From assembly GCA_051362555.1 (NCBI GenBank), contig CM120643.1, positions 10,478,001-10,542,000 of the forward strand: a stretch of 64,000 bases of DNA. Direction: 5' to 3'. How positions within the stretch are numbered: the stretch's first letter is position 1; each line of letters opens with the position of its first letter. The notes beneath the pieces were generated by a model. That model ran no database searches and was not told where the DNA came from. It worked only from the letters and a program-made list of their open reading frames with translations. The translations under genes were made by a program, and so were the position numbers. Below, in pieces: positions 4,701 through 64,000 of the stretch. Source of the DNA: Lingula anatina (taxonomy: Eukaryota; Animalia; Brachiopoda).

Positions 4701-7700
4701 TTGAGGTGTATCAGGCTTCATGTTACAGGTACAATTAATTCTCGCATGCATGCATAAGAATAAAATAAGAAGAATTGTCGGCTGAAAAAAATGGTTAAAT
4801 GTCGTTCACAAAAACTGCTTCTCGGTGTGATAAAAGCTTACACTTATTCAAAGAAGAATATTACAAGTTAAAGCTGAACAGAGAGTTAAACAATTAATCA
4901 TCTTGATATCCTTTCCACATGCATATGCTTTACACAGCATGTAAGGCAAAAAAGGTAGGAATCTCTATGCTTCTATTGGTTTTTCCTTTGACCGATTTTT
5001 TTAAACCCAACACCACATAAATTTCAAAATTTCAGATATCGTTACAACAGAGCCTCCAACGACCAGTACTACAACTGTAACCACAACATCGACCTCTGCC
5101 ACAACGACTACGACCACAACGACTCCAACAACAACAACGTCTACAACTACCACAAGTACAACAACTACAACAACACCAAAAACTACAACAACTAGTACAA
5201 CATTGTCCACTACAACTACAACAAGAACAACGTCAACGACATCTAAACCGTCAACTTCAACTAAGTTGTCGCAATTGTCTAGTAGGACTTCTCCAGCAAG
5301 CAGGATTTCCTCAGAGACATCCACCACATATACTGATATATCCACAAGGTCAAACGAAGGTCAACTTTCATCTACAACAGAACTTCCAAAAGGTAGAGCA
5401 AGCACTGTAACCATAGCAACCTCCTGGGTTCTCTTCTGTTCCTTAGCGATGGCGTTTATGACTAGAAGGAATATTTATCCTTTGTATTATTCTTAGAAAA
5501 TATTTCAAATTTTTTAAATTCACATTAAAAAAGAAAAAGAAAATCATGGTCCAGATTTGGCTCCAATTTTAATACAAATTTAAAGTTTCCGTCCCTACCA
5601 TCCCGCCGTTCGTTTGTGTGCTAATTATTTGGTGCTTGGTGCTTCGATATTTCACCAATTTAATCCCTGCATGCTGAATTCATTGCCTTTCAAGCAATAA
5701 TCATAATTAGTCAAAACCAACCTTGTCTTACCTAGTCAAGCTGAAATACACATTCATTTGTTTTCGCAAATTTATCTTTGACTTTGTTTTCTTTTCTTGC
5801 ACGGCTAAATTTTTCTTTTTTGGTCACTATGTTTGTTGTCTATGTTTCCTTTTAGTAGCATTTAATTTAATAACCTGCACATAAACGTTATTGCACACTT
5901 CAACACGATATATTTACTTGTTAAACGATGCACCAATACCGAAGGTGTTTTGCATCTGTTTTGGGGTATTTTATTTTTTAATAATTTCTGTATTAATGTT
6001 TTGTTTGCTATTGTTACCTTGCATATCTCCAATACATGTTTGCATTTTGATAAATATATTGCATTTTCGTAATACGTTGTCTATTAAATTTGCACGTGTG
6101 TTGCTTTATTGTTAATATTTTGAACCTACGCACCTCATTAAAAGTCCAGAAAATTAGTCAGCTCCTGGTTAAATATTCTGATCTAGTCATGGCCTTTAAA
6201 GTCGAAGGCAAGTCAGGGCATAAAATGGATTATTCACAGTGAGAAATGAACCCATTGCTTGTGCCTTCTAGAACCCTCCACATCCGCCAGTGCCGAAATC
6301 GAATTAGCAAGTTATACTCTTCAACCAACTGGTGAAACCGGGCTCATGGTTTCAACAGCGCAATTTCATTCAGCCCAAAGTTGGGTAACATCAACATCTG
6401 CGCCATCAACAGTTCAAAGTCCCCTGACATCGCTATCTGCGACAGCCACATTTCAGAGTTCAGCAACTGGTGAAACCGGGCTCATGGTTTCAACAGCGCA
6501 ATTTCATTCAGCACAAAGTTGGGGAACATCAACATCTGCGCCATCAACAGTTCAAAGTCTCCTGACCGCCACATTTCAGAGTTCAGCAACATCGTTATCA
6601 ACTCAGATCACAGCACAAACTTCGCCATCATCGATCATTTCTTCGGCCGCAAATTCGGTCTGGCCTACGACTGTGATAGGTATTTCGCCTTCCAGCGCCG
6701 ATGTTTATTCATGGGTTACCTCGACAACGGAAAGCGCTTTTCGGTATTCTTCTGAATTCTTGGTTGTATCTCCCTCAGTAGGGAGCTCAAATTATCCAAG
6801 GAACAATAGTAGTAGCGAGACTGTGTCAGTTGTGACGTCACGGACAGAAACTGCCGTGCTATATACTTCTGTCTCAGAAACTGCAGAATTATCAATTCAA
6901 AGTTCAATGACCACGCCTCCTGGGACCGCCTCCATACAAGGTTCGGCAACATCATTATCAAATGCGATCACAGCACAAGGTTTGTCATCATCGATACCTT
7001 TTTCGGGTGCAAATCCGTCCTGGCCAACGATCAGGATCAGTACCGATCATCTTAGAAGTATACATTCATCGTCCTCTAGTGAATATTTTAGTCATGAAGT
7101 CACTTCGGAGTCATTTGATCCTGGAGGGTCACCCAGTGAAGTCACAACGGGCTTGAACGTCGTGGAGACGTCATGCTCATTTTCTGTTTCTGATAAAGCA
7201 CAAACAGACATTTTATCTAGTTCAAGAAGAACATTTTCTGGAGGTAATATGCAAAGTACTGTGACCAGTGCTCAGCCTGTTTTGTCCACAGAGACATATG
7301 AAACAACGAAAAACTATTACTCATCTATGGAGATTTCATCGCCACGTGCAGTGAGTAGTCGACGTCACTCATTGCAATCTCCAGGCATTCTCCCATCATC
7401 TGCGCGTCATCATTCTTCAATTTCAGTTATTTATCCATCATCGTCATCACATTTATCTCATATATCGACATCTACCCAAATGACACAGACAATCAAGTTT
7501 GAAAGTAGCAGCTCGTTATTGCCTTCGAACAATGAGACGCGAGGGGGCGTTGATACCCAATCTAGTGGTATGAAATCGTCTTCATATTTTCGTTTTTTTT
7601 AAGTATTAAACATAACCGTTCAAGTGAATGAAATAAAATTAACGGTTTTCGTCGTCGTAGCTAAAATTAAAATGATTTTTATTACTCCTTCATTTATGAT

Positions 7701-13083: not shown

Positions 13084-13215
13084 GTCTGTCCTGGCTACTA
13101 AAAGCTGTAAGGGGATAATTAACTGTCGCGCGCTTGACTGACTGCAATTTAGCGTGAACCCCCAGGGAGTTAGGTCGATCCGGATGGATCGATCTAAATC
13201 TCTGGGAATGCACTC
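13084..13215. mobile_element. Truncated copy of a Harbinger-type MITE family (TTCCCATAGATTTTAGATCGATC termini)
   Basis: Shares gcgtgaacccccagggagttaggtcgatc...gatcgatctaaa with 29009-29213 and 62563-62995; ends ...gggaatgcactc-TAA. Confidence 0.7.
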
Positions 13216-26739: not shown

Positions 26740-46826
<20,087 letters not shown>

Positions 46827-47779: not shown

Positions 47780-49287
47780 GTACAGATACCTTGTCTTTTA
47801 AGATAATCACCTTAGATATGCATTCTTTTCTTTTTTTTTTAACAGAATCAAAGCGTGAGGCACCAATGCATGAGTAATCCCAGTAAATGGATTTGGGGTT
47901 TCGTTTCATTTTCCTTTTAACCTATCTCAACTCTTTCTTATTCATTCATTTATTCATTAGACGTCAGACCAAATAGCTGAAATGCATGTTCCATATACAT
48001 GCCTTTCTGTGTAATATCCAATGTTTGCATTTCTTTATAGGGAGGCCTATAGGCCTACGATGTAGGTCTTATATTAACACATAAATGTATGGACCCTCCA
48101 GCACTAAGGTCCCAAAAGCATAGATAGTGGGCTTGTGGCAGTGCCACAGCTTTGTGAATTGGGTTTTAAATTTCTTAATCTTGAATTATTTTCTTTTAGG
48201 ATAATTTTTCACGTCCACCGTTTATAAAACATTAAGATAAAATTATAAACATAAATGGTGGCAGAGCCACGTACGGCATATAGGGCCTATAACAAAAATT
48301 CTGGTTTTACGTTTCTTAGTCTTGTAATGTTTTTCTTGGTAAGTACTGTTTATAATATTTCCATTTCTTGTGTCAGTGAAGAATTATAAACAAGGTGCTA
48401 TATAAACAAATAATTTTATTCAGCTAAATTTCAGCTGAATTTCTAGAGGTTTGTGCAGCCTTCAAATACAACCCATACTGTGGAAAAAGACCTGAGCATG
48501 TGAAATTCCAAGTGATTAAAAAAAAAACCCACTCCCTTCAAACGGATGGGCAAACTGAACATCGATGACGAAGTGCACTTGTTTGCTATCGATTTGTCTT
48601 TGTTCCAAATAATCAAAACATAAGACCCAGTTGATGCAAACTTAGAGCGCTACTCTTAAATTGCATTAAATACCTATTTTTCATTCAGTTTATCGATGGC
48701 ACATTTTCTATGCACTTGCCTACTTAGCTACCGGATACTAGTACATGTATACATGTACCTGTACATGTACTTAGTGTTACAGTACTAGTGGTACAAGTAC
48801 CAGCTACTGGTACAATGTACATGTGTTGGGTAAATACTGTATTGTGGTGCTGTATAGACGAGTATGTATTTGTATGTTTATTAAACAATATCCAGTAAAA
48901 TAATGGCATTATACAGTGTATATGTATGTGTGGTAAAATACTCTTATTATATGCAGTTTGATCCATAGTCTCAACTATATGTACACTGTACCTGTAGCAG
49001 ACATAAATACCGAAAAACAATTCCAGAGATACTAGTAGTAGTACAAGCAAAAAAGGGGTGGGGTGGGGGGGGGGGGATTAATTGCTACTACATGTACGAG
49101 TTAATTTTATAATTAAGAATGCTGTGCAAGGTGTGTGTGTGTGTGTTGGGGGGGGGGGGGTAATTGCTACTACATGTACAAGTTAATTTTATAATTAAGA
49201 ATGCTGTGCATACTGCTTTATTGATGTGTGTAATAATGGGTTCTAAAGATTCATGCTTTTATCTGATGTTTTACAATTTATTTCTAG

Positions 49288-53359
<4,072 letters not shown>

Positions 53360-53383
53360 GTGAGTTTGTGAACCTTTTTTCCC

Positions 53384-53435
<52 letters not shown>

Positions 53436-56400
53436 AAGGACTGTGGTCTTCACTACCTTGTTATTAACTTTGTCTAACAACACTGATTTGATTCTAACAA
53501 TTAAAAAAAAATATATCTAAAACAACCAAACAAAACCCAAGTGACTGAAACTGAGGGTAAAAACAGGCCAATATGTTTTCTTTGAGGTAACGTTGATTAA
53601 TATATCGTTTTCTTCTTGATTCTTAATTCTGTGCCATTCTTTTTATTTAGGCAGCATAATAGTACTGTAAGTCAACTGGCAAATTTGGATGATTTATTTT
53701 TGATATCATCAATGAGTTGCTCTATTCTATATCAGATAAACTTGATAGGGGCAAGTGGGGTGCTTTAAGAACATATTTTGATTTGGAAATGGGTTTTCTT
53801 CACATTTCTTGAATTTGAAAGGACAATGGTCATGGCGTCAGAATGGCCCAAACGGAACATATTCTTCAGAAAACATGCCCAACTAACGACATCTTTATCC
53901 AAATACACAAATTAAAAGCTCATTTTGTAAATTTTGGACTTTAAAAAATGTCCTATTTGCTCGGCCTGAGAGTTAATGAGCTACGTGGTCATGTGGTTCG
54001 ATGACGACAATCGTGCCACCGGCGGAACTGTCGAACTTCTGATAAAAGTTTATACTCATTCAAATCTCTTACCCGAGGGGTCAAAACCCTCGTGAAACTG
54101 TGTAAAACCATTTACCGTCTATTCAATTCTTTAACAAGCATTTAATTATGCTTATCCCAAGTTGTATAAAACACTGCATTTGAATGACTTAAGGGTACTG
54201 TTGATTATTCCATATGAGGTCCATGTTATTTGTGAAATTCAATTTATTTTATTAAACCGCTGACACCCCGTCTTGCATACTTTTATTAAACTGAGGTAAA
54301 CAAGGCCTGTTACCTTTACAAGTCCTATCTTAATCATCCATCTAACTGGAACTTCCTTTGTCTTGTCTTTGTCTTGCGAGTATCGAACGCACTCTCGCTG
54401 GTGATATTTATCTCAGGTAAAAATCTACATGTGCATTAGTTTCAAAGAGCAGCTCCCGCAGACCTGGGGGTACTAGATAAAATCTGAACACCAGGTTTAT
54501 TGAGGAGCTAGAGAAACAAAGGAAGAATTTTTCCTGCAGAGCTTCATAGGAATCTTAACACGATTTGAACCAGCTTAGACCTCCAAACTAACAGGGTAAC
54601 ATGGGTAATTTTCACAAACAAATAATAAAACTATATTTTAGTTCCTTTTAAATAAATATACCGTTATGGGTTAATTAGAATATTAATTAAATCGCGAGAA
54701 TATTTTTGACTTAAATGATGATTTTATTATTAATGGAAATTAATGAAGCTACTATATGTGGTTCATTTGCTGTGATTACGCTGCCCTTCCTGTTTTGCGT
54801 TAGTCTACATTTTGCTGTACGTGCTTTTTAAAATATGTGCGTACAATTTTTGCAGGTCTGGTTATGCCCCTGTTATGTGATGAAAGTCTAAATTTGGCAA
54901 TTGGTTCCTTTGCTTATTAGAATAGAATTGCAGTGTAAAATTTTCAACAAGATGTTGGTGCAATAGCCCTTCACTCTTTGTGGATATTTCCCCTGTCAAA
55001 GTTTCTCTAAAATTATCTTTCAATCTTTACTCTTTCAAGGGCAGTATAAAGTTATCTGACATATTTTCGTGAAAACTTAATGACAAGCCAAGTGTCTCAA
55101 GTTCATTCCGTACCCAATTTTTACCCAAGCAATTTTTTTTCTTGAGTAGATCTTTATAGCATGCTGTTATAATACAATTTTTCGAAGAGGGGATCTAAAT
55201 CAATATTTAAAAAAGTGTAGCTTCATACTTAAAAGAATTGGGTATCTACCGCTTTTATAATATACCAAGTTATGTACAATGAACTTAGTAATCAGTATAG
55301 TGCTCTTTTTTTACACCCAACATTCTTTTAAAAATCTGTATGTGCTATTCTTATATCCCTTACCAGGTTAAATCTCCATGCATAATTTAAAATATACTAA
55401 CGTACATAAAACTGCACATTTAGTAAATGCATGAAAGTAATGATTTTTTACATGCTTCTAGTAGCAAACAGTGCTCTTTTACCTTGATCTGCTACATGTT
55501 TTTGGGTTTGACAAAGCTTACAAATTTGCAAAAAGTTTTGTGTACAGCTGCAGAACTTGCTTTTCAAGTTATCAAATGATAAAATTATTTTATAAATCAG
55601 ATGAAATAACCTTCAGAAACAAATCCTTAAAGCATAAACGAATTAGGATTATATACAAACTATTTTATTACAGCAGTTCCCAAATTTTCTTTAATATACC
55701 CCTCTTTTTCTGTTTTTCCTCAACATGTTTTCTTCCACGGAAGTAATGCCTGGGCATACGCATGCTTCAGGATACCCTGAGAGCAATTACTTTTATTAAT
55801 GTTCGCGACAGTGTTTGAACTCAATTGTTTAAAATATTGATATTTAACGTCATTTACAAATACCAATAATATAACCCCATGAAATAAATGAGATATATTG
55901 AAAAATATGAAAGCCCACCATGACGAGTTTGATACCTGTTATTACCTGGTTTGGGATGTGCAGTGGTGCATAATTAACAGGTTTTATTGTTAACGAGCTC
56001 TTGGTCAACTACAATGCATTTAAAATGCATCAGCAATTAGTAAGCTTGCCAACTGATTACAGTTAATCTGAAAGACTATCAGCTTTTGATATGATCTAAA
56101 CCACCTGAGGTGACCATGATCTCATCGCATCGCACCTATTGTCACCGAAGTTACTAAGTCACGGAAGACCGTCACAGACAAAGAAAAGATTGTGAACAAG
56201 TGCTGCAATTTCGGTGAATCCCACAGCAACACACTGAGGCATAACGAAAATTGCTCAACTCCGTTCAACACAACTTTCCTAAACTTCTCTGTCTGTATGC
56301 ACTTGCAGCACAGTTGAGTCTTATAAATATATGTAGACCTTTATCCTCATTATCGTCACAGTACCATGTTACCCAGATCTGTTGCTTCATTTATGCATAT

Positions 56401-57000
56401 TGAGGTGAGGTTTACTAAAACGCTTTTTGTCTACTAATAGATTGTTTTTATAATTTTTTTAATAGCAGGGATCGATTAAAACATAACTGTAGTGTATAGA
56501 TTAAGTGCTGGATCTTCAGAATTCGAGAAATGGATTTTTATATGACTATTGTCCTTGAAGTCTAAATAGTCACCAACATACATGTCAATATAATAACAAC
56601 GTATTCACTCTGCAGGTGCAAAAAAGAAAAAAAAAATGCATAATATCACTTTACACATAAGTCTGTCAAAGAAAACATAGCACAAATATCAGTGCCATGC
56701 CATTTTATTAACAAAAAAATGTCTCTCCTTTATATGAACAAGACCCTTTTATCTACTGGTATGCCATTAAACCAGCCACTGAGATACAGTTAGAAACACT
56801 TAACTGTTTACACCATTTTTCACTTTTTTATATATATCCACCACACAAACAAAATCATTTAATATCACTGGCTTTTACATTATACAAACTCCATTTACAT
56901 TTGCAGATTGAAATGGCATCAAATGAAAAGAACTGCTTCTTTCTTATGCACATACAGTATGGATGTGGTCCCAGGCTTTAAAACAACAAGCAGACAATTA

Positions 57001-57223
57001 GGGACCGTTCACATGAAAAATCTATTGGCGGTATCTTGTGATCACGGTCTGTGCCCTGAATACCCCGTGGCGTAATTACTGGCAGCGCTAGCGAGTTACT
57101 TCCAAAGCTGTAATAAATTCTCGGCTGTGCTTGGAGGAGATTCTGACACCAGACCGTGATCACAAGATACCGCCAATAGATTTTTAGATTTTTAGAAAAT
57201 AGATTTTTCATGTGAACGGTCCT
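57001..57223. mobile_element. Harbinger-like MITE present only in the right arm
   Basis: TIR ggaccgttcacatgaaaaatctatt / aatagatttttcatgtgaacggtcc plus inner arms; empty site caattaggcaaagc in the left arm near 38200. Confidence 0.85.
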
Positions 57224-57813
57224 CAAGGCAAAGCATGGTTAATATCGCCATGCTGGTGGACTTGAGTACAATGGGGGAGGTTGGGTGGGTGGGGGTTATT
57301 GGTTCTAAATGCTCCTCAAAATATTTCAGCTTCTAAATTTTTTTTTTCAAGCACGTTCACTTTATTTCATACATTCAAAAGACATGTATTTTCCAATGTA
57401 AAATTTAGATGTCTCAACCAAAATTCTTTATCGCATCTTTCACCACAGAGAGCCAGCTACATGCATGATTATGAATTTTAGAGTTTGTTTACAGCTAGTG
57501 AAGTTTATATATTTAGAACAGGTATACTTCAGTTGTGTAATGGTTGATTTAATTTTAATATATTAAAATTGCATTTTTTGGTTGGCAACAATATCTTAAC
57601 CAGTGTTGACTTAAACTGTAACTGGTGTGAACTCAACCATAAAAATATTGCACATCTTGTAGTTTTAAATCTAAATATAGATGATAATTGAAACTCCATA
57701 AATTATTATGGTGGAATTTAAAAGAAACTTGGCTTTTTCTACACTCAGCTGTCACCCTGTTACCTCCAACCCCCCCCCCCCCCAAAAAATAATAATAAAA
57801 ACAAAAACAAAAA

Positions 57814-57847
<34 letters not shown>

Positions 57848-58442
57848 GCAGGATGTCACATTAGTTAACCATTGTGCAAATAATCTGATCAAATAGTTTT
57901 AGTAATTTTAATTGAATTTCATAAAATTCCCATGTATACCCTATACTGTTAGAGTGAACTTATTGGCATAATTTACTATTTAGTAGATGGGACATATTTG
58001 GAGATTTTATAAAACAATTTTGATAGTTTTTGCACAATATTTTTGACTTATGTGGCACTCAAAAATCATTTTATGTGATAAAAAAGAGACATGCAGGGTT
58101 ACTACACTTTCTTTTTTCTGACAGCCTGGTCAAAAAGTTAGAAAAAACAAACTATCTCTGGAGGAAAAATTAAAGAAATAAAAAAAAAAAAGAAGAAGTT
58201 GGGACTGTTAAAAATGAATGAAATATGAAAAAATGAATTTACTGAAGGTAATACACCTTTACAGAATAATGCATTTAGTTAAAAAAAGAAAGAAATATTT
58301 TATGAATAACAACAACTATTAAGTTACGGTAGCCCTACTTTACTAGTACATTCAAAAAGTCCTTACTAATAAGTACTTGAATTAGAGCCTCAAAAGTCTT
58401 TGAAAATCCTTGATTTTTAACTTACTGTATGAACCTACAATT

Positions 58443-59522
58443 TCATTCCCCCCAATCATAAAGAAGTTCTACCTCTTTTTCAATTACAGTACTGTTTTCA
58501 GCGATGTAAAAATATGTTGCTAGCGCTGTGTCTGAGATTTCGGGGAAAATACTGTACCATTTGTTCTGATTTGCAAATTCAAGGAGATCAATTTCCCATG
58601 GTTTGTGCGTGTCACTAGGTTCTTCTTCCTCCCTTATAAGTTCAAGATTTTTGTCTCTATTTATCATGCGATAAACTTGTTTGTCTTTGGTCAGATAGTA
58701 TTCAACTTTATCATCAGCATTCCTTTTTTTCTGCTGAAATCCCTGCATGCTCTGCAAATTGTCAAGCTTTTGTTTTTCTTCAGAATCTTTGATTTTCATC
58801 CTTGATTGCTGCTTTTTCATGTCATACCAGTGTAAAAATTCCTCCCAATGCCTGGCTTTTGGTGAAAATCCTTCCAGAAGAATCATGCCATGCAACTCAT
58901 TGTCATGCAAAGAAGTGGAGAATGCTGGATTGTAAATGAGTTGGCGAGTGATATACCCATTGCCCAAAAGGAAGGCATAGATATTCGGATTTGATGCATG
59001 CTGCTTGTGGGCAAGCTTCAGCCATTTGTAAAACTGTGGCGACACCATTGTATTGTCGTGCAAGAAGAGGACAATTTCTTTTACGTTACTTGCAGGTCTC
59101 CATGTATTTGTCCACTGGAAATCCCTTCCTTTATGTATGGGTTGAACATGCACTGATACAAGGACGTTATCACACTTAAAGCTATTTGCTACATACAGAG
59201 TACTCATATCTATTGTATTATCTTCATTTCTGTCTATCCAGATTTCAATCTCAACGCGATCCATTTGGAATTCTGCTTGACATACAGATGTCAGTGTTGT
59301 TTGCAGGCATTGAGATTGGTTCATGGTTAAAACTATGACTCGTAGATCAGTCGGATGGCTGTTCAGGTACTGAGCGATGAAGTTCCTCGTATCTTGTCTT
59401 ATATCCATTTGGTATATGTGCCCTATATAAAGCTGAAACAGCCCTATACATACAAGAACCAAACCTGCCAAAACGGGGCCACTCCAGAATTTTTTCATGT
59501 TAAAATTATTTTCCTTTGCCAT
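58443..59522 (-). CDS. Glycosyltransferase-like protein, copy B (359 aa from Met)
   Basis: Intact ORF of the same length as copy A; 19 amino-acid differences by my count. Confidence 0.8.
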   Translation of the reverse strand: MAKENNFNMKKFWSGPVLAGLVLVCIGLFQLYIGHIYQMDIRQDTRNFIAQYLNSHPTDLRVIVLTMNQSQCLQTTLTSVCQAEFQMDRVEIEIWIDRNEDNTIDMSTLYVANSFKCDNVLVSVHVQPIHKGRDFQWTNTWRPASNVKEIVLFLHDNTMVSPQFYKWLKLAHKQHASNPNIYAFLLGNGYITRQLIYNPAFSTSLHDNELHGMILLEGFSPKARHWEEFLHWYDMKKQQSRMKIKDSEEKQKLDNLQSMQGFQQKKRNADDKVEYYLTKDKQVYRMINRDKNLELIREEEEPSDTHKPWEIDLLEFANQNKWYSIFPEISDTALATYFYIAENSTVIEKEVELLYDWGE

Positions 59523-61328
59523 TAATTCATATGAATCAGTTCCTGTTTTCAAAACTGATTCCAATTTTTGTGTCTCAGAGCAACAGTACAACCAGTTCCA
59601 AAAATGTTTAGAGTTTCCAAGTGTAGGTAAAAGTGTAGGCTTCTCAAATCCCTCCTGTTTTATAGGCAGATGTCTCCTTTAGACTCTGCTTAGCTCCAGT
59701 TGAGAATTGATTCAAACTGTGTTCAACTGCTTGCCCTTCATTGTTATCGACTGCTCCACTTTTATTCTGTTCACATTCGCAGTTTCATTGTATCTTTCTC
59801 GTTATATACACCTGATATCCAATGCAGAGCAATTGTATTTATGTATGCAATTCCCTTGTATATACATAAATGTATATGCCAGAACTTGGAATAATTGTAC
59901 CCTTGATTCAGTATACTGTTGTAGATGCACTGTAGCACAAACTGTTGCATCCAATGTCACATCACCAACTGCAAGGTATCATCATTGGGATCCAGTCTCA
60001 AAATGCCATGAAATGAATTTTTATAGCACAGGATGCAGAGAAACCCTCAGGTGAAATCAGTCATGCTGTCCTCAGGCTTTCAGTTCAGTTTCCATACATG
60101 TTCATAATCATTTCATTTTTCACCTTCATCTGGAAGGATATAAATGTGGGAAATTAATTTATAATTTATACATATACATTGCTGTGTCATGAATGCATGG
60201 AAAGTACCAGGAGATTTTATTAGTGATCATTTCTACCTGTTTTCAGTCTATAGTTTATCCTTTCTACATACCTTACTGTAACAGTAATTACTTAAATTTT
60301 CTAATACACGTGAACCATGAAAATCTGACTCCCCTAAAATGTGACTCCCCAGTCAGATTTTCATTATGAAAATGTGACTCCCCAGTCAGATTTTCATGAT
60401 GAAAATCTGACTCCCCCTATGAAATTTTGACTCCCCCCAAAAAAACATTCATAAATCTCATTTAATTTGAGTAAATGACTATATATGATCTTGTAGTATG
60501 CATAATGGAGGACACATTGGCACTTTTTGTTAGTTTGCAGGTGAAAATTTTCATGAAAAAATAAAAAAAATTAAAGATTTGTATTTTACCACCCAAGGAC
60601 TTCCCTATGAAAAAGCTATTTATTTGACATCTGATGACCGTTTCAACATCTTTTCTTTGAGGATACTTTATGAGGAATATATTGAAAGTACTTGAAAGTT
60701 TGATGGTTAAAAAACTGGGTGAAAAAAAAAAAAAAAAAAAAAAAAAACACATTAAAAAATAAGAAAAATTAAAGATTTATATTCTAACACCCAATGAATC
60801 CCCTATACAAAAGCTACGTATTTACGTGCAGTTCTACCTCGACCATTGAGCAATCAACACGTCGTTGTCAGAACTCCTTGGCTCACAATAGTGACACGCA
60901 GGTGAATATCCTTACCACCTTACTGTGCCGCTATTAGATACACACATACAAAGGCGAGACACCTTTGTAAGGACGAGACGTCCTCGCACATAAGTGCATT
61001 TACAATCTGCGTAAGCAGACACACACTCACAAAGGCGAGACACCTTTGATGAGAACCGGGTTAGCAATCAACACGTCGTTGTCAGAACTCCTTGGCTCAC
61101 AATAGTGACACGCAGGTGACTGTCCTTACCACCTTACTGTGCCGCTATCAGTAAGCAACACCACCACTAAGCGAGATACTTTCGTGGTCTACTATATCGT
61201 CACAAGCGAGACACTTGTGAACGTACTCTCTCACTGTGATCTGCCTAGCAGATACACACATACAAAGGCGAGACACCTTTGTAAGGACGAGACGTCCTCG
61301 CACATAAGTGCATTTACAATCTGCGTAA

Positions 61329-62016
61329 TGCCCCTATTTCACACAGACCACGAATCCCACGAATGGCCAGGAATTGACAAATTTCACGATTCGTGGTTGA
61401 ATCGTAATCAGTTCGTGAAGTTCTTAACAGATTCGTATAAATTCCTAGTCAATTCTTGAACTTCTTGACCAACAGGAATTGGTGGCAAAAACTTTGATGC
61501 CCCTATTTCACACAGACCACGAATCCCACGAATCGCCAGGAATTGAAAATTTTAGGATTCGTGGTTGAATCGTAATCAGTTCGTGAAGTTCTTAACAGAT
61601 TCGTATATAATCGTAGTCAGTTCTTGCAATTCTTGATCAATCGGGAATTCGTGGCAAAAATTTTGAACTGTTCGAAGTTTTGGCCACGAACTCCCGATTC
61701 CAAAAAATAGTAGTGAATTTCTGGACAATATTCGTGCGATTCCAGCCGAATCCCACGAATATTCGTAACACTATCGCACCTGTATCGTAACTGAATCGTA
61801 GAGCGTGTCGAATTAGACCAAAAAATTGGCAAAATCTCACGATTCCAGCCGAACCCCACGAATATTCGTAACACTATCGTACCTGTATCGTAACTGAACC
61901 GTGAGCGTGTCGAATAAGACCAGAAAATTGGCAAAATCTCACGAATCCTCACGAATCCTGAAATTTGTCAATTCCTGGCGATTCGTGGGATTCGTGGTCT
62001 GTGTGAAATAGGGGCC
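61329..62016. mobile_element. PIF/Harbinger-type non-autonomous element, TAA TSD, nested in the concatemer
   Basis: TAA-tgcccctatttcacacagaccacgaatcccacgaat ... attcgtgggattcgtggtctgtgtgaaataggggcc-TAA; empty site ctgcgTAAgcagac near 61010; duplicated left end near 61498. Confidence 0.9.
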
Positions 62017-62160
62017 TAAGCAGACACACTCACAAAGGCGAGACACCTTTGATGAGAACCGGGTTCTCTCCACCTGGGGAAAACCACCTGCTGCTATACA
62101 GCATTGACCACCCCCTCACGCACACCCAACCCCTTTTTTCCTTTTTTTTCTTTCGGACTC

Positions 62161-62205
62161 TGCAGCTGATGAAGGTCACTTGTTGACCGAAAACCGCTTT
62201 CTGCA
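62161..62205 (+). ncRNA. Minimal type I hammerhead ribozyme (copy 1)
   Basis: TGCAG-CTGATGA-a-GGTCA-cttgt-TGACC-GAAA-accgct-tt-CTGCA. Confidence 0.75.
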
Positions 62206-62562
62206 ACCAGTCCACCCCCCCCCCCTCTCCAGGCTGTACGACCCGTACAACCTTTCTCTGGTCACTTTCATACAGAGGTAAGACGCCTCTCTCTGCACCA
62301 CGCTGACGTGAGACGCCTCATGCAGTACGCTGTACACAGCTACGCACACACACTCCATCAGATATAACTTTAATCTGATATATCAAATCACTCCTTCACA
62401 CAAACGTAACGAAGGAAAACAAAGGGAATTAGAGCATTAAATCTCAACCCCTAGCGTCCCACCAACAATCTCTAAGCTTTTAACTAGGGGCGCTGTCAAA
62501 ACACACGTCCCCAGGGGCCCAGCCTTGGATCGTGTTATTTTGATTTGAGGTAGTTTAACTAA

Positions 62563-62995
62563 GGCTCTATTCCCATAGATTTTAGATCGATCTATCCCTG
62601 CGGGGAGTCTCACTAGATTACTTTCAGATAATCCGACTTAAATGTCCGTCCCGCCTACTACAAGCTGTAAGAGGGTAATTAACTTTCGTGTCCGCCCGGC
62701 TGACAGCTGTCTAGCGTGAACCCCCAGGGAGTTAGGTCGATCTAAAGTAGGTCGATCTAATCTATGAAAAATGGGTGTAAGGCTCTATTCCCATAGATTT
62801 TAGATCGATCTATCCCCGCGGGGAGTCTCACTAGATTACTTTCAGATAATCCGACTTAAATGTCCGTCCCGCCTACTACAAGCTGTAAGGGGGTAATTAA
62901 CTTTCGTGTCCGCCCGGCTGAGAGCTATTTAGCGTGAACCCCCAGGGAGTTAGGTCGATCTAAAGTAGGTCGATCTAAACTATGGCAATGGGGTG
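62563..62995. mobile_element. Head-to-tail dimer of a ~215-bp Harbinger-type MITE (62563-62777, 62781-62995), separated and flanked by TAA
   Basis: Empty site gtttaacTAAggcatgagcc near 63555; filled site TAA-[unit]-TAA-[unit]-TAA-ggcatgagcc. Confidence 0.9.
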
Positions 62996-63155
62996 TAAGG
63001 CATGAGCCGACCACCCCCAAACTTGAGTTCTACCTCGACCATTGAGCAATCAACACGTCGTTGTCAGAACTCCTTGCCACCTGCTGCTATACAGCATTGA
63101 CCACCCCCTCACGCAAACCCAACCCCTTTTTTCCTTTTTTTTTACTTTCGGACTC

Positions 63156-63200
63156 TGCAGCTGATGAAGGTCACTTGTTGACCGAAAAGCGCTTTCTGCA
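63156..63200 (+). ncRNA. Minimal type I hammerhead ribozyme (copy 2)
   Basis: TGCAG-CTGATGA-a-GGTCA-cttgt-TGACC-GAAA-agcgct-tt-CTGCA; palindromic stem III AAAGCGCTTT; predicted cleavage after 63195. Confidence 0.8.
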
Positions 63201-64000
63201 ACCAGTCCAACCCCCCCCCCCCCCCTCCAGGCTGTACGACCCGTACAACCTTTCTCTGGTCACTTTCATACAGAGGTGAGACGCCTCTCTCTACACCACG
63301 CTGAGGTGAGACGCCTCATGCAGTACGCTGTACACAGCTACGCACACACACTCCATCAGATATAACTTTAATCTGATATATCAAATCACTCCTTCACACA
63401 AACGTAACGAAGGAAAACAAAGGGAATTAGAGCATTAAATCTCAACCCCGAGCGTCCCACCAACAATCTCTAAGCTTTTAACTAGGGGCGCTGTCAAAAC
63501 ACACGTCCCCAGGGGCCCAGCCTTGGATCGTGTTATTTTGATCTGAGGTAGTTTAACTAAGGCATGAGCCGACCACCCCCAAACAAAAAACAAATACGTA
63601 TTTGATATTTGATGATCATACTGACATCTTTTCTTTGAGGATACTTTATGAGGAATATATTGAAAGTACTTGAAAGTTTGATGGTAAAAGAATTGGGTGA
63701 AAAAAAAACACATTAAAAAATAAGAAAAATTAAAGATTTATATTCTAACACCCTATGACTCCCCTATGAAAAAGCTATCTATTTGATATTTGATGATCAT
63801 TCTGACATCTTTTCTTTAAGGATACTTTATGAAGAATATATTGGAAATATTTGAAAGGTTGAATGGTAAAATGCTGGGTATGCTATATAAGAGGAATTCA
63901 GTAAAAAGGCGATGGGGCCAATTTCTTGAGTTAAAAATGTAGCGTTTTGACATGGAAGTGCAAAACCTACAGGTAGTAAGATGAATACTTGTTTTAAAGA

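Follow-up and report, generated by a model that had tools for sequence, protein, structure and literature searches.

In the ingi/RIME and L1Tc/NARTc pairs of trypanosomes, a long element has a short partner composed of its two ends, and the pair is associated with a ribozyme and a target site duplication (TSD). The ribozyme is HDV-like and located at the 5' end, and the machinery is that of a LINE. Penelope-like elements carry minimal type I hammerheads, described as having a helix I of 4–5 bp, an extra base at 9/10.1, a G10.1–C11.1 pair and a palindromic 15.2–16.2 stretch; in D. virilis Penelope, the 5' arm of helix I is where an intron ends (PMC4209133). According to PMC3846280, Penelope insertions have TSDs of 8–10 bp, and non-coding sequence is moved in trans by Penelope terminal repeats. 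The insertions are usually 5'-truncated at random and have a 30–40-bp extension (PMC3846280, PMC8969392). Which features of their RNA Penelope enzymes recognize, and what purpose the minimal hammerhead serves, are presented as open questions (PMC4209133, PMC8557442). Animal retrozymes stem from Penelope terminal repeats. A split-direct-repeat layout has been reported for a Gypsy element, and thus extends beyond recombinase elements (PMC5890265); it has more than one origin (PMC4157794).

The insert described here occupies positions 60824–63594 (2.8 kb) of the window, i.e., the whole 64-kb stretch of animal genomic DNA that was analysed. It is flanked on both sides by an exact 9-bp TSD, a duplication expected by chance at ~1e-5. 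Its features are as follows:

60815–60823, + strand: left TSD, TACGTATTT, inside a satellite unit of ~180–200 bp
60824–60829, + strand: 5' junction, ACGTGC (6 nt), the first 4 nt repeating part of the TSD
60830–60880, + strand: module A1, a single hairpin from base +1 with a GCAA cap (z −3.3)
60881–62083, + strand: internal region B, a series of hairpins that includes a duplication and the nested MITE1
60955–63313, + strand: 12 hairpins with the loop YRAGAYR, 7 of them distinct, with covarying stems
61063–61094, + strand: partial A', in which the first 19 nt of A are absent
61329–62016, no strand assigned: MITE1, with 66-bp terminal inverted repeats and internal tandem duplications
62084–63022, + strand: module C1, split by MITE2
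62161–62205, + strand: minimal type I hammerhead 1, with a 5-bp stem I, CUGAUGA plus an extra A, and a 5-bp stem II
62563–62995, no strand assigned: MITE2, two 215-bp copies 4.7% apart, with TAA between and flanking them
63023–63025, + strand: TTG linker joining C1 to A2, with neither tail nor TSD between the units
63026–63076, + strand: module A2, the same as A1, directly abutting C2
63077–63584, + strand: module C2, 508 nt, unbroken
63156–63200, + strand: minimal type I hammerhead 2, with the palindromic stem III AAGCGCUU and a predicted cut after 63195
63585–63594, + strand: A-rich tail, AAAAAACAAA
63595–63603, + strand: right TSD, TACGTATTT again

On both sides of the insert, the satellite unit that it splits is colinear with the neighbouring unit, without a gap. 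Both ends of the insert coincide with the C|A junction and lie far from the predicted cut sites. The insert has 33 stop-to-stop frames of at least 40 aa; a Pfam scan of 26 of these gave no match and hence no coding trace. The TSD, the A-rich tail and the absence of an ORF are as given in a preliminary description of this DNA, with which our coordinates and modules agree to within 1 base. We considered the left arm of an inverted duplication as a possible empty site, and rejected it because the whole satellite unit that houses the insert is missing there. The earlier proposal that insertion took place after the two arms had diverged is not supported: the arms differ by 0.25% beside the site and C1 and C2 by 1.6%, and recombination in the left arm removed the unit.

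The duplicated modules diverge by 0–3.4% (11 substitutions in 766 aligned bases), with 0 differences in 51 positions between A1 and A2 and 8 substitutions in 501 between C2 and the MITE2-bearing C1, which is compatible with one common origin. Region B contains a duplication of its own (60849–61062 versus 61063–62065). While modules A, A', B and C lie where the preliminary description placed them, they do not form the uniform head-to-tail repeat that it envisaged. Instead, unit 1 is A-B-C and unit 2 is A-C, and the exact layout, A1-internal-C1-A2-C2, is the split-direct-repeat order. The A1 hairpin may represent the 5' end or an internal promoter. B contains two donor-like CAG|GTGA sites, with GT at 60902 and 61116. 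B itself was rejected as a spliced-out intron producing A|C, since neither strand has GT/GC..AG at the ends of B, and splicing of segment 61152–61249 from the first B copy was rejected because the register matches a CAG microhomology.

The YRAGAYR loops start at 60955, 60974, 61036, 61172, 61207, 61269, 61288 and 62039 in the B region, at 62279 and 62309 in C1, and at 63277 and 63307 in C2. Since B and C share this loop-conserved hairpin, both belong to one RNA family. Neither the covarying hairpins nor the split-repeat layout appeared in the preliminary description.

In the 64 kb, both strands included, the hammerhead pattern has just two matches, with cores at 62166 and 63161, compared to a total of 2 matches in 100 shuffles (0.02 per shuffle). 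They contain the CUGANGA and GAAA boxes, an extra base after A9, G10.1–C11.1 and a helix I within the range of 4–5 bp, as do the minimal hammerheads of Penelope. The 8-mer AAGCGCTT forms stem III proper, and the cut triplet is UUU. One substitution in copy 1 breaks the palindrome (stem III AACCGCUU; predicted cut after 62200). The pattern search thus bears out the earlier report of two minimal hammerheads, palindromic in copy 2 and with a single substitution in copy 1, whereas Rfam called neither of them, with E limits of 1 for 5 kb and 10 for 101 bases. Polypyrimidine-CAG acceptor-like sites end at 62165 and 63160, at the 5' arm of helix I in hammerheads 1 and 2, respectively, as does the intron in D. 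virilis Penelope.

In the monomer hammerheads, the active fold was predicted to lie 4–6 kcal/mol above the minimum. A double hammerhead of copy 2 with itself was favoured in silico (−29.5 versus −21.6 kcal/mol for two monomers), as was that of copy 1 with copy 2 (−22.8 versus −19.8 kcal/mol for the separate monomers), so that action as a dimer, proposed previously, is also what the folding predicts. The predicted cut-to-cut RNA, of which B is no part, is 995 nt, or ~559 nt (~0.56 kb) if MITE2 is discounted. The hammerhead cut site is followed by 385 nt of structured sequence. With MITE2 set aside, C-A-C amounts to a 1.9-mer of the ~0.56-kb unit, with A-B outside it; TRF did not report this tandem repeat in the sequence as it stands.

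RNA depth on the backbone was 0–16 per direction, while the MITEs reached tens to over a thousand. Reads did not pile up with their ends at 62200 or 63195, where depth was at most 7 per direction. None of the 15 joints listed, out of 27 in all, was a back-joint on the backbone, in libraries that are ill-suited to circles (two of the four were poly(A)-selected and would miss them). Reads with a variant C, having three differences within 16 nt (18–20 reads of X22), and two reads (X16) that join B to the hammerhead through a different 24-nt spacer are a weak sign of other loci. A search of sequencing runs listed no RNA run as containing the stretch.

Taken by its sequence features, the insert is a retro-insertion that is non-coding, probably non-autonomous and equipped with minimal hammerheads of the Penelope type, as previously suggested. 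We consider it somewhat probable that it is a non-autonomous structured-RNA retroelement which a Penelope-like enzyme mobilised in the form of a long unit and a short unit in tandem. This reading draws on the hammerhead features, the acceptor site, the TSD length (9 bp falls in the Penelope-like range of about 8–12 bp), the precedent of mobilisation in trans, the origin of animal retrozymes from Penelope repeats, the recurrence of the core in metagenome loci, the RNA reads that weakly point to other loci, the dimer folds and the low divergence of the modules. The insert resembles the endonuclease-bearing (EN+) Penelope-like elements, their pseudo-LTRs and their non-autonomous derivatives, as described in PMC4209133, PMC3846280 and PMC8557442, in its minimal type I hammerhead (which has an extra base and a stem III that is palindromic), in the acceptor at helix I, the TSD, the tandem copies and the putative trans mobilisation of non-coding sequence. 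Unlike them, it has no ORF, random 5' truncation or 30–40-bp extension, and the listed inverted repeats include no inverted copy; moreover, the cut is followed by 385 nt of structured sequence, and the A-B-C-A-C layout looks fixed. In addition, the upstream unit is the longer one and is complete at A, in contrast to the 5'-truncated upstream copy of a Penelope partial tandem. The reading is further weakened by the ends flush with C|A, the split-repeat layout, the lack of an Rfam score, the monomer folds and the low RNA depth. The trypanosome pairs share the long–short pairing, a ribozyme and a TSD with the insert, but in the insert the hammerhead is internal.

In the proposed mechanism, a Penelope-like enzyme would reverse-transcribe the element into a nicked target, the long A-B-C followed by the short A-C. 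The unit RNA would be linear, with A at its start and the end of C at its finish, and both units would be joined in one event, either by a template jump leaving TTG or by copying of a tandem transcript. The YRAGAYR hairpins are putative binding sites for a partner protein. The two hammerheads may pair as a double hammerhead that cuts UUU slowly, and the cut would free a ~0.56-kb C+A RNA, which may circularise. This copy would later have decayed and gained three MITE copies.

The main alternative, which we regard as doubtful, is a fixed, non-autonomous split-direct-repeat element with a Ngaro/PAT-like layout (A1-internal-B1-A2-B2), which acquired a hammerhead in its duplicated 3' repeat; this copy would have been placed by nicking and tail addition, without a recombinase. 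The layout matches the published definition exactly and explains all four junctions together (PMC8969392, PMC9210276, PMC8547959), and the near-identical repeat pairs are also like those of Ngaro, PAT and VIPER. Such layouts exist outside recombinase elements (PMC5890265, PMC4157794), and Ngaro and DIRS types are present in bivalves (PMC10294476). The repeated loop-conserved hairpins might fit Gag-type packaging signals, and two hammerhead copies per transcript would make a double hammerhead possible. However, DIRS-order elements lack TSDs (PMC8969392), whereas the insert has both a 9-bp TSD and an A-rich tail; its flanks are unlike the C1|A2 junction; and its hammerhead is Penelope-type and located in the 3' repeat. 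Among the papers listed in literature searches, none ties hammerheads to DIRS/Ngaro elements. Unlike Ngaro, PAT and VIPER, the insert has no Gag, RT or recombinase genes.

The preliminary description favoured a retrozyme with a monomer of roughly 0.9 kb, copied as a multimer from a circular or tandem RNA; we find it unlikely that a circular RNA was copied in this way by rolling-circle reverse transcription. The insert does have two tandem hammerheads on the same strand, a circular fold of the C+A unit exceeds its shuffles in stability (z −4.3, 40 shuffles), and the metazoan non-LTR retrozymes described in PMC7229834 are likewise non-coding, with tandem type I hammerhead repeats and larger TSDs (>4 bp). 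Nor is the monomer length unusual, as had been thought, since it falls inside the 51–972 bp given for animal retrozyme consensus sequences (10.64898/2026.07.22.740005). However, a rolling-circle copy should consist of identical units, while B is present in unit 1 and absent from unit 2, so the circle model is unsupported. The cut-to-cut RNA does not include B, the insert begins and ends at the C|A junction, and the A-rich tail could presumably not be supplied by a circle. Furthermore, the retrozymes described in PMC7229834 bear canonical hammerheads and are abundantly expressed, in contrast to the minimal hammerheads and low depth seen here.

It is very improbable that two Penelope terminal repeats (C) captured unrelated structured A and B in a one-off event. 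Penelope repeats with TSDs are described as capturing unrelated sequence (PMC3846280), and the best DNA runs contain 0.42 of the sampled words, near the MITE share of the stretch (0.41), and so give no sign of the backbone in other individuals. However, B and C carry the same hairpin, and the two X16 reads join B to the hammerhead differently. An LTR retrozyme or other non-autonomous LTR element was rejected because the insert has A at its start and C at its end rather than TG..CA, a TSD of 9 bp rather than 4–6 bp, and no TGG primer site in the sequence downstream of C1.

The same hammerhead core was matched 48 times in 47 metagenome loci, many of them near-duplicates. Among the 20 cores with a stem I of at least 4 bp, the base at the cut is U in 15 and stem III is palindromic in 12. 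The core is all that these loci have in common with the insert, to which blastn gave no match at E 1e-3; the YRAGAYR hairpin is absent from them, as stems of at least 3 were present in 4 of the 283 motif matches, and stems of at least 4 in none. The four nearest same-strand frames of at least 70 aa per locus, 149 in total, included no GIY-YIG or other Penelope domain, which, together with the absence of cleavage in 8 of 9 Xenopus dimers tested in vitro, weakens the Penelope-like reading. One of these frames matched an RT, which by its look we take to be an ordinary LINE fragment. Locus L028 had no tblastx match to the other metagenome loci or the window, and the pattern gave 0 matches in viral contigs.

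A broader reading, which is speculative and rather unlikely, is that the insert represents a non-coding family uniting the Ngaro/PAT split-repeat layout, a Penelope-type hammerhead and endonuclease-primed insertion, in which the layout activates the ribozyme and the YRAGAYR array recruits a borrowed enzyme. The duplicated 3' repeat would place two half-competent hammerheads on each transcript, and the layout would thus turn the ribozyme on; splicing of B to the helix I acceptor would restore 4 of the 5 stem I pairs. Since a non-coding passenger retains cis signals only, the YRAGAYR hairpin and the 5' hairpin A are direct candidates for binding. The C1-A2-C2 stretch, with one copy intact and one mutated, is a natural double-hammerhead substrate. 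If the fixed layout were common to other copies, it would bridge two retroelement architectures that are held separate today.

The MITEs nested in the insert belong to two families. MITE1, presumably of the PIF/Harbinger type as judged by its TSD, is flanked by a TAA duplication (61326–61328 and 62017–62019), and its empty site is found near 61009, in the duplicated segment. The empty site of MITE2 is present in C2, and relatives of MITE2 occur in the same window at 13084–13210 and 29025–29207.

The insert of 60824–63594 is flanked on both sides by copies of TACGTATTT and lies inside a ≈180–200-bp satellite unit. The 9-bp target-site duplication (TSD) is exact, since, left and right of the insert, the interrupted satellite unit can be aligned gap-free with the next unit. 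The arrangement is as follows:

60824–63594: insert; in order, 6-nt junction, A1 (51 nt), B, C1, TTG, A2, C2 (508 nt), tail AAAAAACAAA
61329–62016: MITE1; TAA duplication, empty site in the duplicated module
62563–62995: MITE2 pair; TAA duplications, empty site in the duplicated module

With the TSD, the TAA duplications and the empty sites all seen, the preliminary description of a TSD-flanked insert with nested MITEs was borne out. Its claim that there is no ORF is consistent with a Pfam scan of 26 of the 33 insert frames, which gave no match. B contains an additional partial duplication, starting at A+20. By coordinate arithmetic, the long unit (A-B-C) measures ≈1,066 nt without the MITEs, or ≈850 nt if the partial duplication in B is also removed. 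At the right boundary, the tail's final AAA combines with the TSD into a perfect 12-bp palindrome, AAATACGTATTT (63592–63603). The AGTT at the start of module A (60830–60862) resembles an initiator, and ACACGT follows at +28 to +33, spaced like the downstream promoter elements that some LINEs have.

A descriptor scan of both strands of the 64 kb found exactly two hammerhead motifs, at 62166 (copy 1) and 63161 (copy 2), one in each C module as previously described; 100 shuffles gave two matches in total. Neither motif was called in the Rfam check. Both resemble the minimal hammerheads of Penelope-like elements, which have a short helix I, an extra base after A9, G10.1-C11.1 and a palindromic stem III (PMC4209133). 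The predicted cut triplet, UUU, is natural for this type: U is found at the cut in 15 of the 20 metagenome motifs with a stem I of at least 4 bp (48 core matches at 47 loci, picked by the insert's own core and including near-duplicates). In monomer folding, the active fold reached −4.7 and −5.0, compared to minima of −9.0 and −10.8. Double hammerheads were favored for copy 2 with copy 2 (−29.5 vs. −21.6 as separate monomers) and copy 1 with copy 2 (−22.8 vs. −19.8), and disfavored for copy 1 with copy 1 (−16.1 vs. −18.0). A polypyrimidine-CAG site terminates exactly at the 5' arm of helix I, where an intron likewise ends in D. virilis Penelope (PMC4209133). Splicing from the CAG/GTGA sites in B would restore four of the five stem I pairs; none of the RNA-seq joints shown links these sites to the acceptor-like site. 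One metagenome locus, L018, has two minimal hammerheads on opposite strands (37–64 and 506–533) at a distance of ≈470 bp; this inverted arrangement is one that has been described for Penelope insertions. In two others, long frames beside a minimal hammerhead are open in all three phases of one strand (L009:1102–2077 and L035:1708–2777), which is likely a tandem repeat.

A feature absent from the preliminary description is a set of hairpins with the 7-nt loop YRAGAYR, of which the backbone (the insert without MITEs) has 12 copies, each on the same strand as the hammerheads. A Watson-Crick stem of 3–8 bp encloses 11 of these loops; elsewhere in the window such a stem accompanies 3 of 93 matches, and at the 47 metagenome loci 4 of 283, none of the latter reaching 4 bp. 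Among the seven distinct hairpins, five of six pairs had changes on both sides, a level reached in 0 of 500 shuffles, and slid-partner controls scored lower. As the motif was defined from these same sequences and the numbers are small, this covariation is support for selection on structure, but not proof of it. A single hairpin from base +1 makes up module A (z = −3.3), and the start of B forms another (z = −3.2). Folding of A1 together with the 5' portion of B gave z = −5.3 and that of the C+A unit z = −4.3; two sub-stretches of C alone gave no significant value (z = −1.4). B and C are therefore assigned to one structured RNA family.

The insert had been proposed to be a retrozyme copied as a multimer from a circular or tandem RNA. 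The circle model falls short because the two units are unequal (A-B-C and A-C), the predicted cut-to-cut RNA of 995 nt (≈559 nt without MITE2) would comprise C and A only, both insert ends lie within 6 nt of the C/A junction, and a tail is present. Retrozymes have been described with canonical hammerheads and abundant circles (PMC7229834). Nor is the monomer set apart by its length, as had been suggested: animal retrozymes, reported as derived from Penelope repeats, reach 972 bp, and one of nine dimers tested cleaved (10.64898/2026.07.22.740005).

The modules are laid out as A1-internal-C1-A2-C2. Ngaro and PAT elements share this split-direct-repeat layout and are described without TSDs (PMC8969392, PMC9210276, PMC8547959, PMC4157794); the layout is also reported in one Gypsy element (PMC5890265). 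The TSDs of Penelope elements are 8–10 bp long, and these elements mobilize non-coding sequence in trans (PMC3846280); their usual layout has a truncated upstream copy (PMC8557442). The insert is assigned to neither family, because its TSD and tail distinguish it from Ngaro and PAT, and its layout from Penelope. A literature search, with most subscription papers and Repbase outside its scope, gave no description of a hammerhead in a split-repeat element. The insert is a real, structured, non-coding retro-insertion with predicted Penelope-type hammerheads in an unusual layout, which would most likely work like a Penelope-dependent passenger.

C1 and C2 differ at 8 of 501 positions, the A copies at 0 of 51, and the duplicates in B at 3 of 89, 0 of 79 and 0 of 46. 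Changes that break predicted helices are present in both C copies, consistent with neutral decay. With a divergence of 4.7%, the MITE2 pair likely represents separate arrivals. Insertion had been placed after divergence of the arms (the two halves of an inverted duplication; the insert sits in the right). There are two satellite units in the left arm, the first a hybrid, and three in the right; the extra material in the right arm differs by 4–8% from its neighbors, whereas the arms differ by 0.25% at the insert site (≈0.6–5.5% elsewhere). The left arm therefore most likely lost the unit, with or without the insert, so that the proposed order does not follow.

Four RNA-seq runs were mapped (≈6% of three, 25% of one). 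Depth per direction was 0–16 on the backbone, with no read-end pile at the predicted cut sites; on the MITEs it ranged from tens to more than a thousand, reads from elsewhere included. Divergent C versions among the reads, and two reads joining B via another 24-nt spacer to the hammerhead's pyrimidine tract, are a weak sign of other loci. Among the DNA runs, the highest fraction of sampled words was 0.42, which matches the share made up by the MITEs (0.41); the runs are therefore uninformative on backbone copy number. The MITE2 family is heavily represented in RNA-seq, and has older copies (75–82%) at 13084–13210 and 29025–29207.

The window is animal DNA with a GC content of ≈35%. The inverted duplication (34432–46751 vs. 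48435–64000, 94–97% identity) may be real or two haplotypes joined in assembly; its divergence is patchy (≈0.6–5.5% per kb, many indels), and it contains exons with MORN repeats as well as a glycosyltransferase-like frame (359/411 aa). The Atlas neighbor cluster of the 359-aa frame is mostly Mollusca (score 0.96), which serves as a lead only. The host repeat (60300–60823 with 63595–63880; 34432–35152) consists of short palindromic sub-repeats followed by ≈180–200-bp tandem units, with a diverged copy (≈80%) in opposite orientation at 33771–34340. At 5005–7602 there are mucin-like reading frames rich in Thr and Ser, 163 and 450 aa in length.
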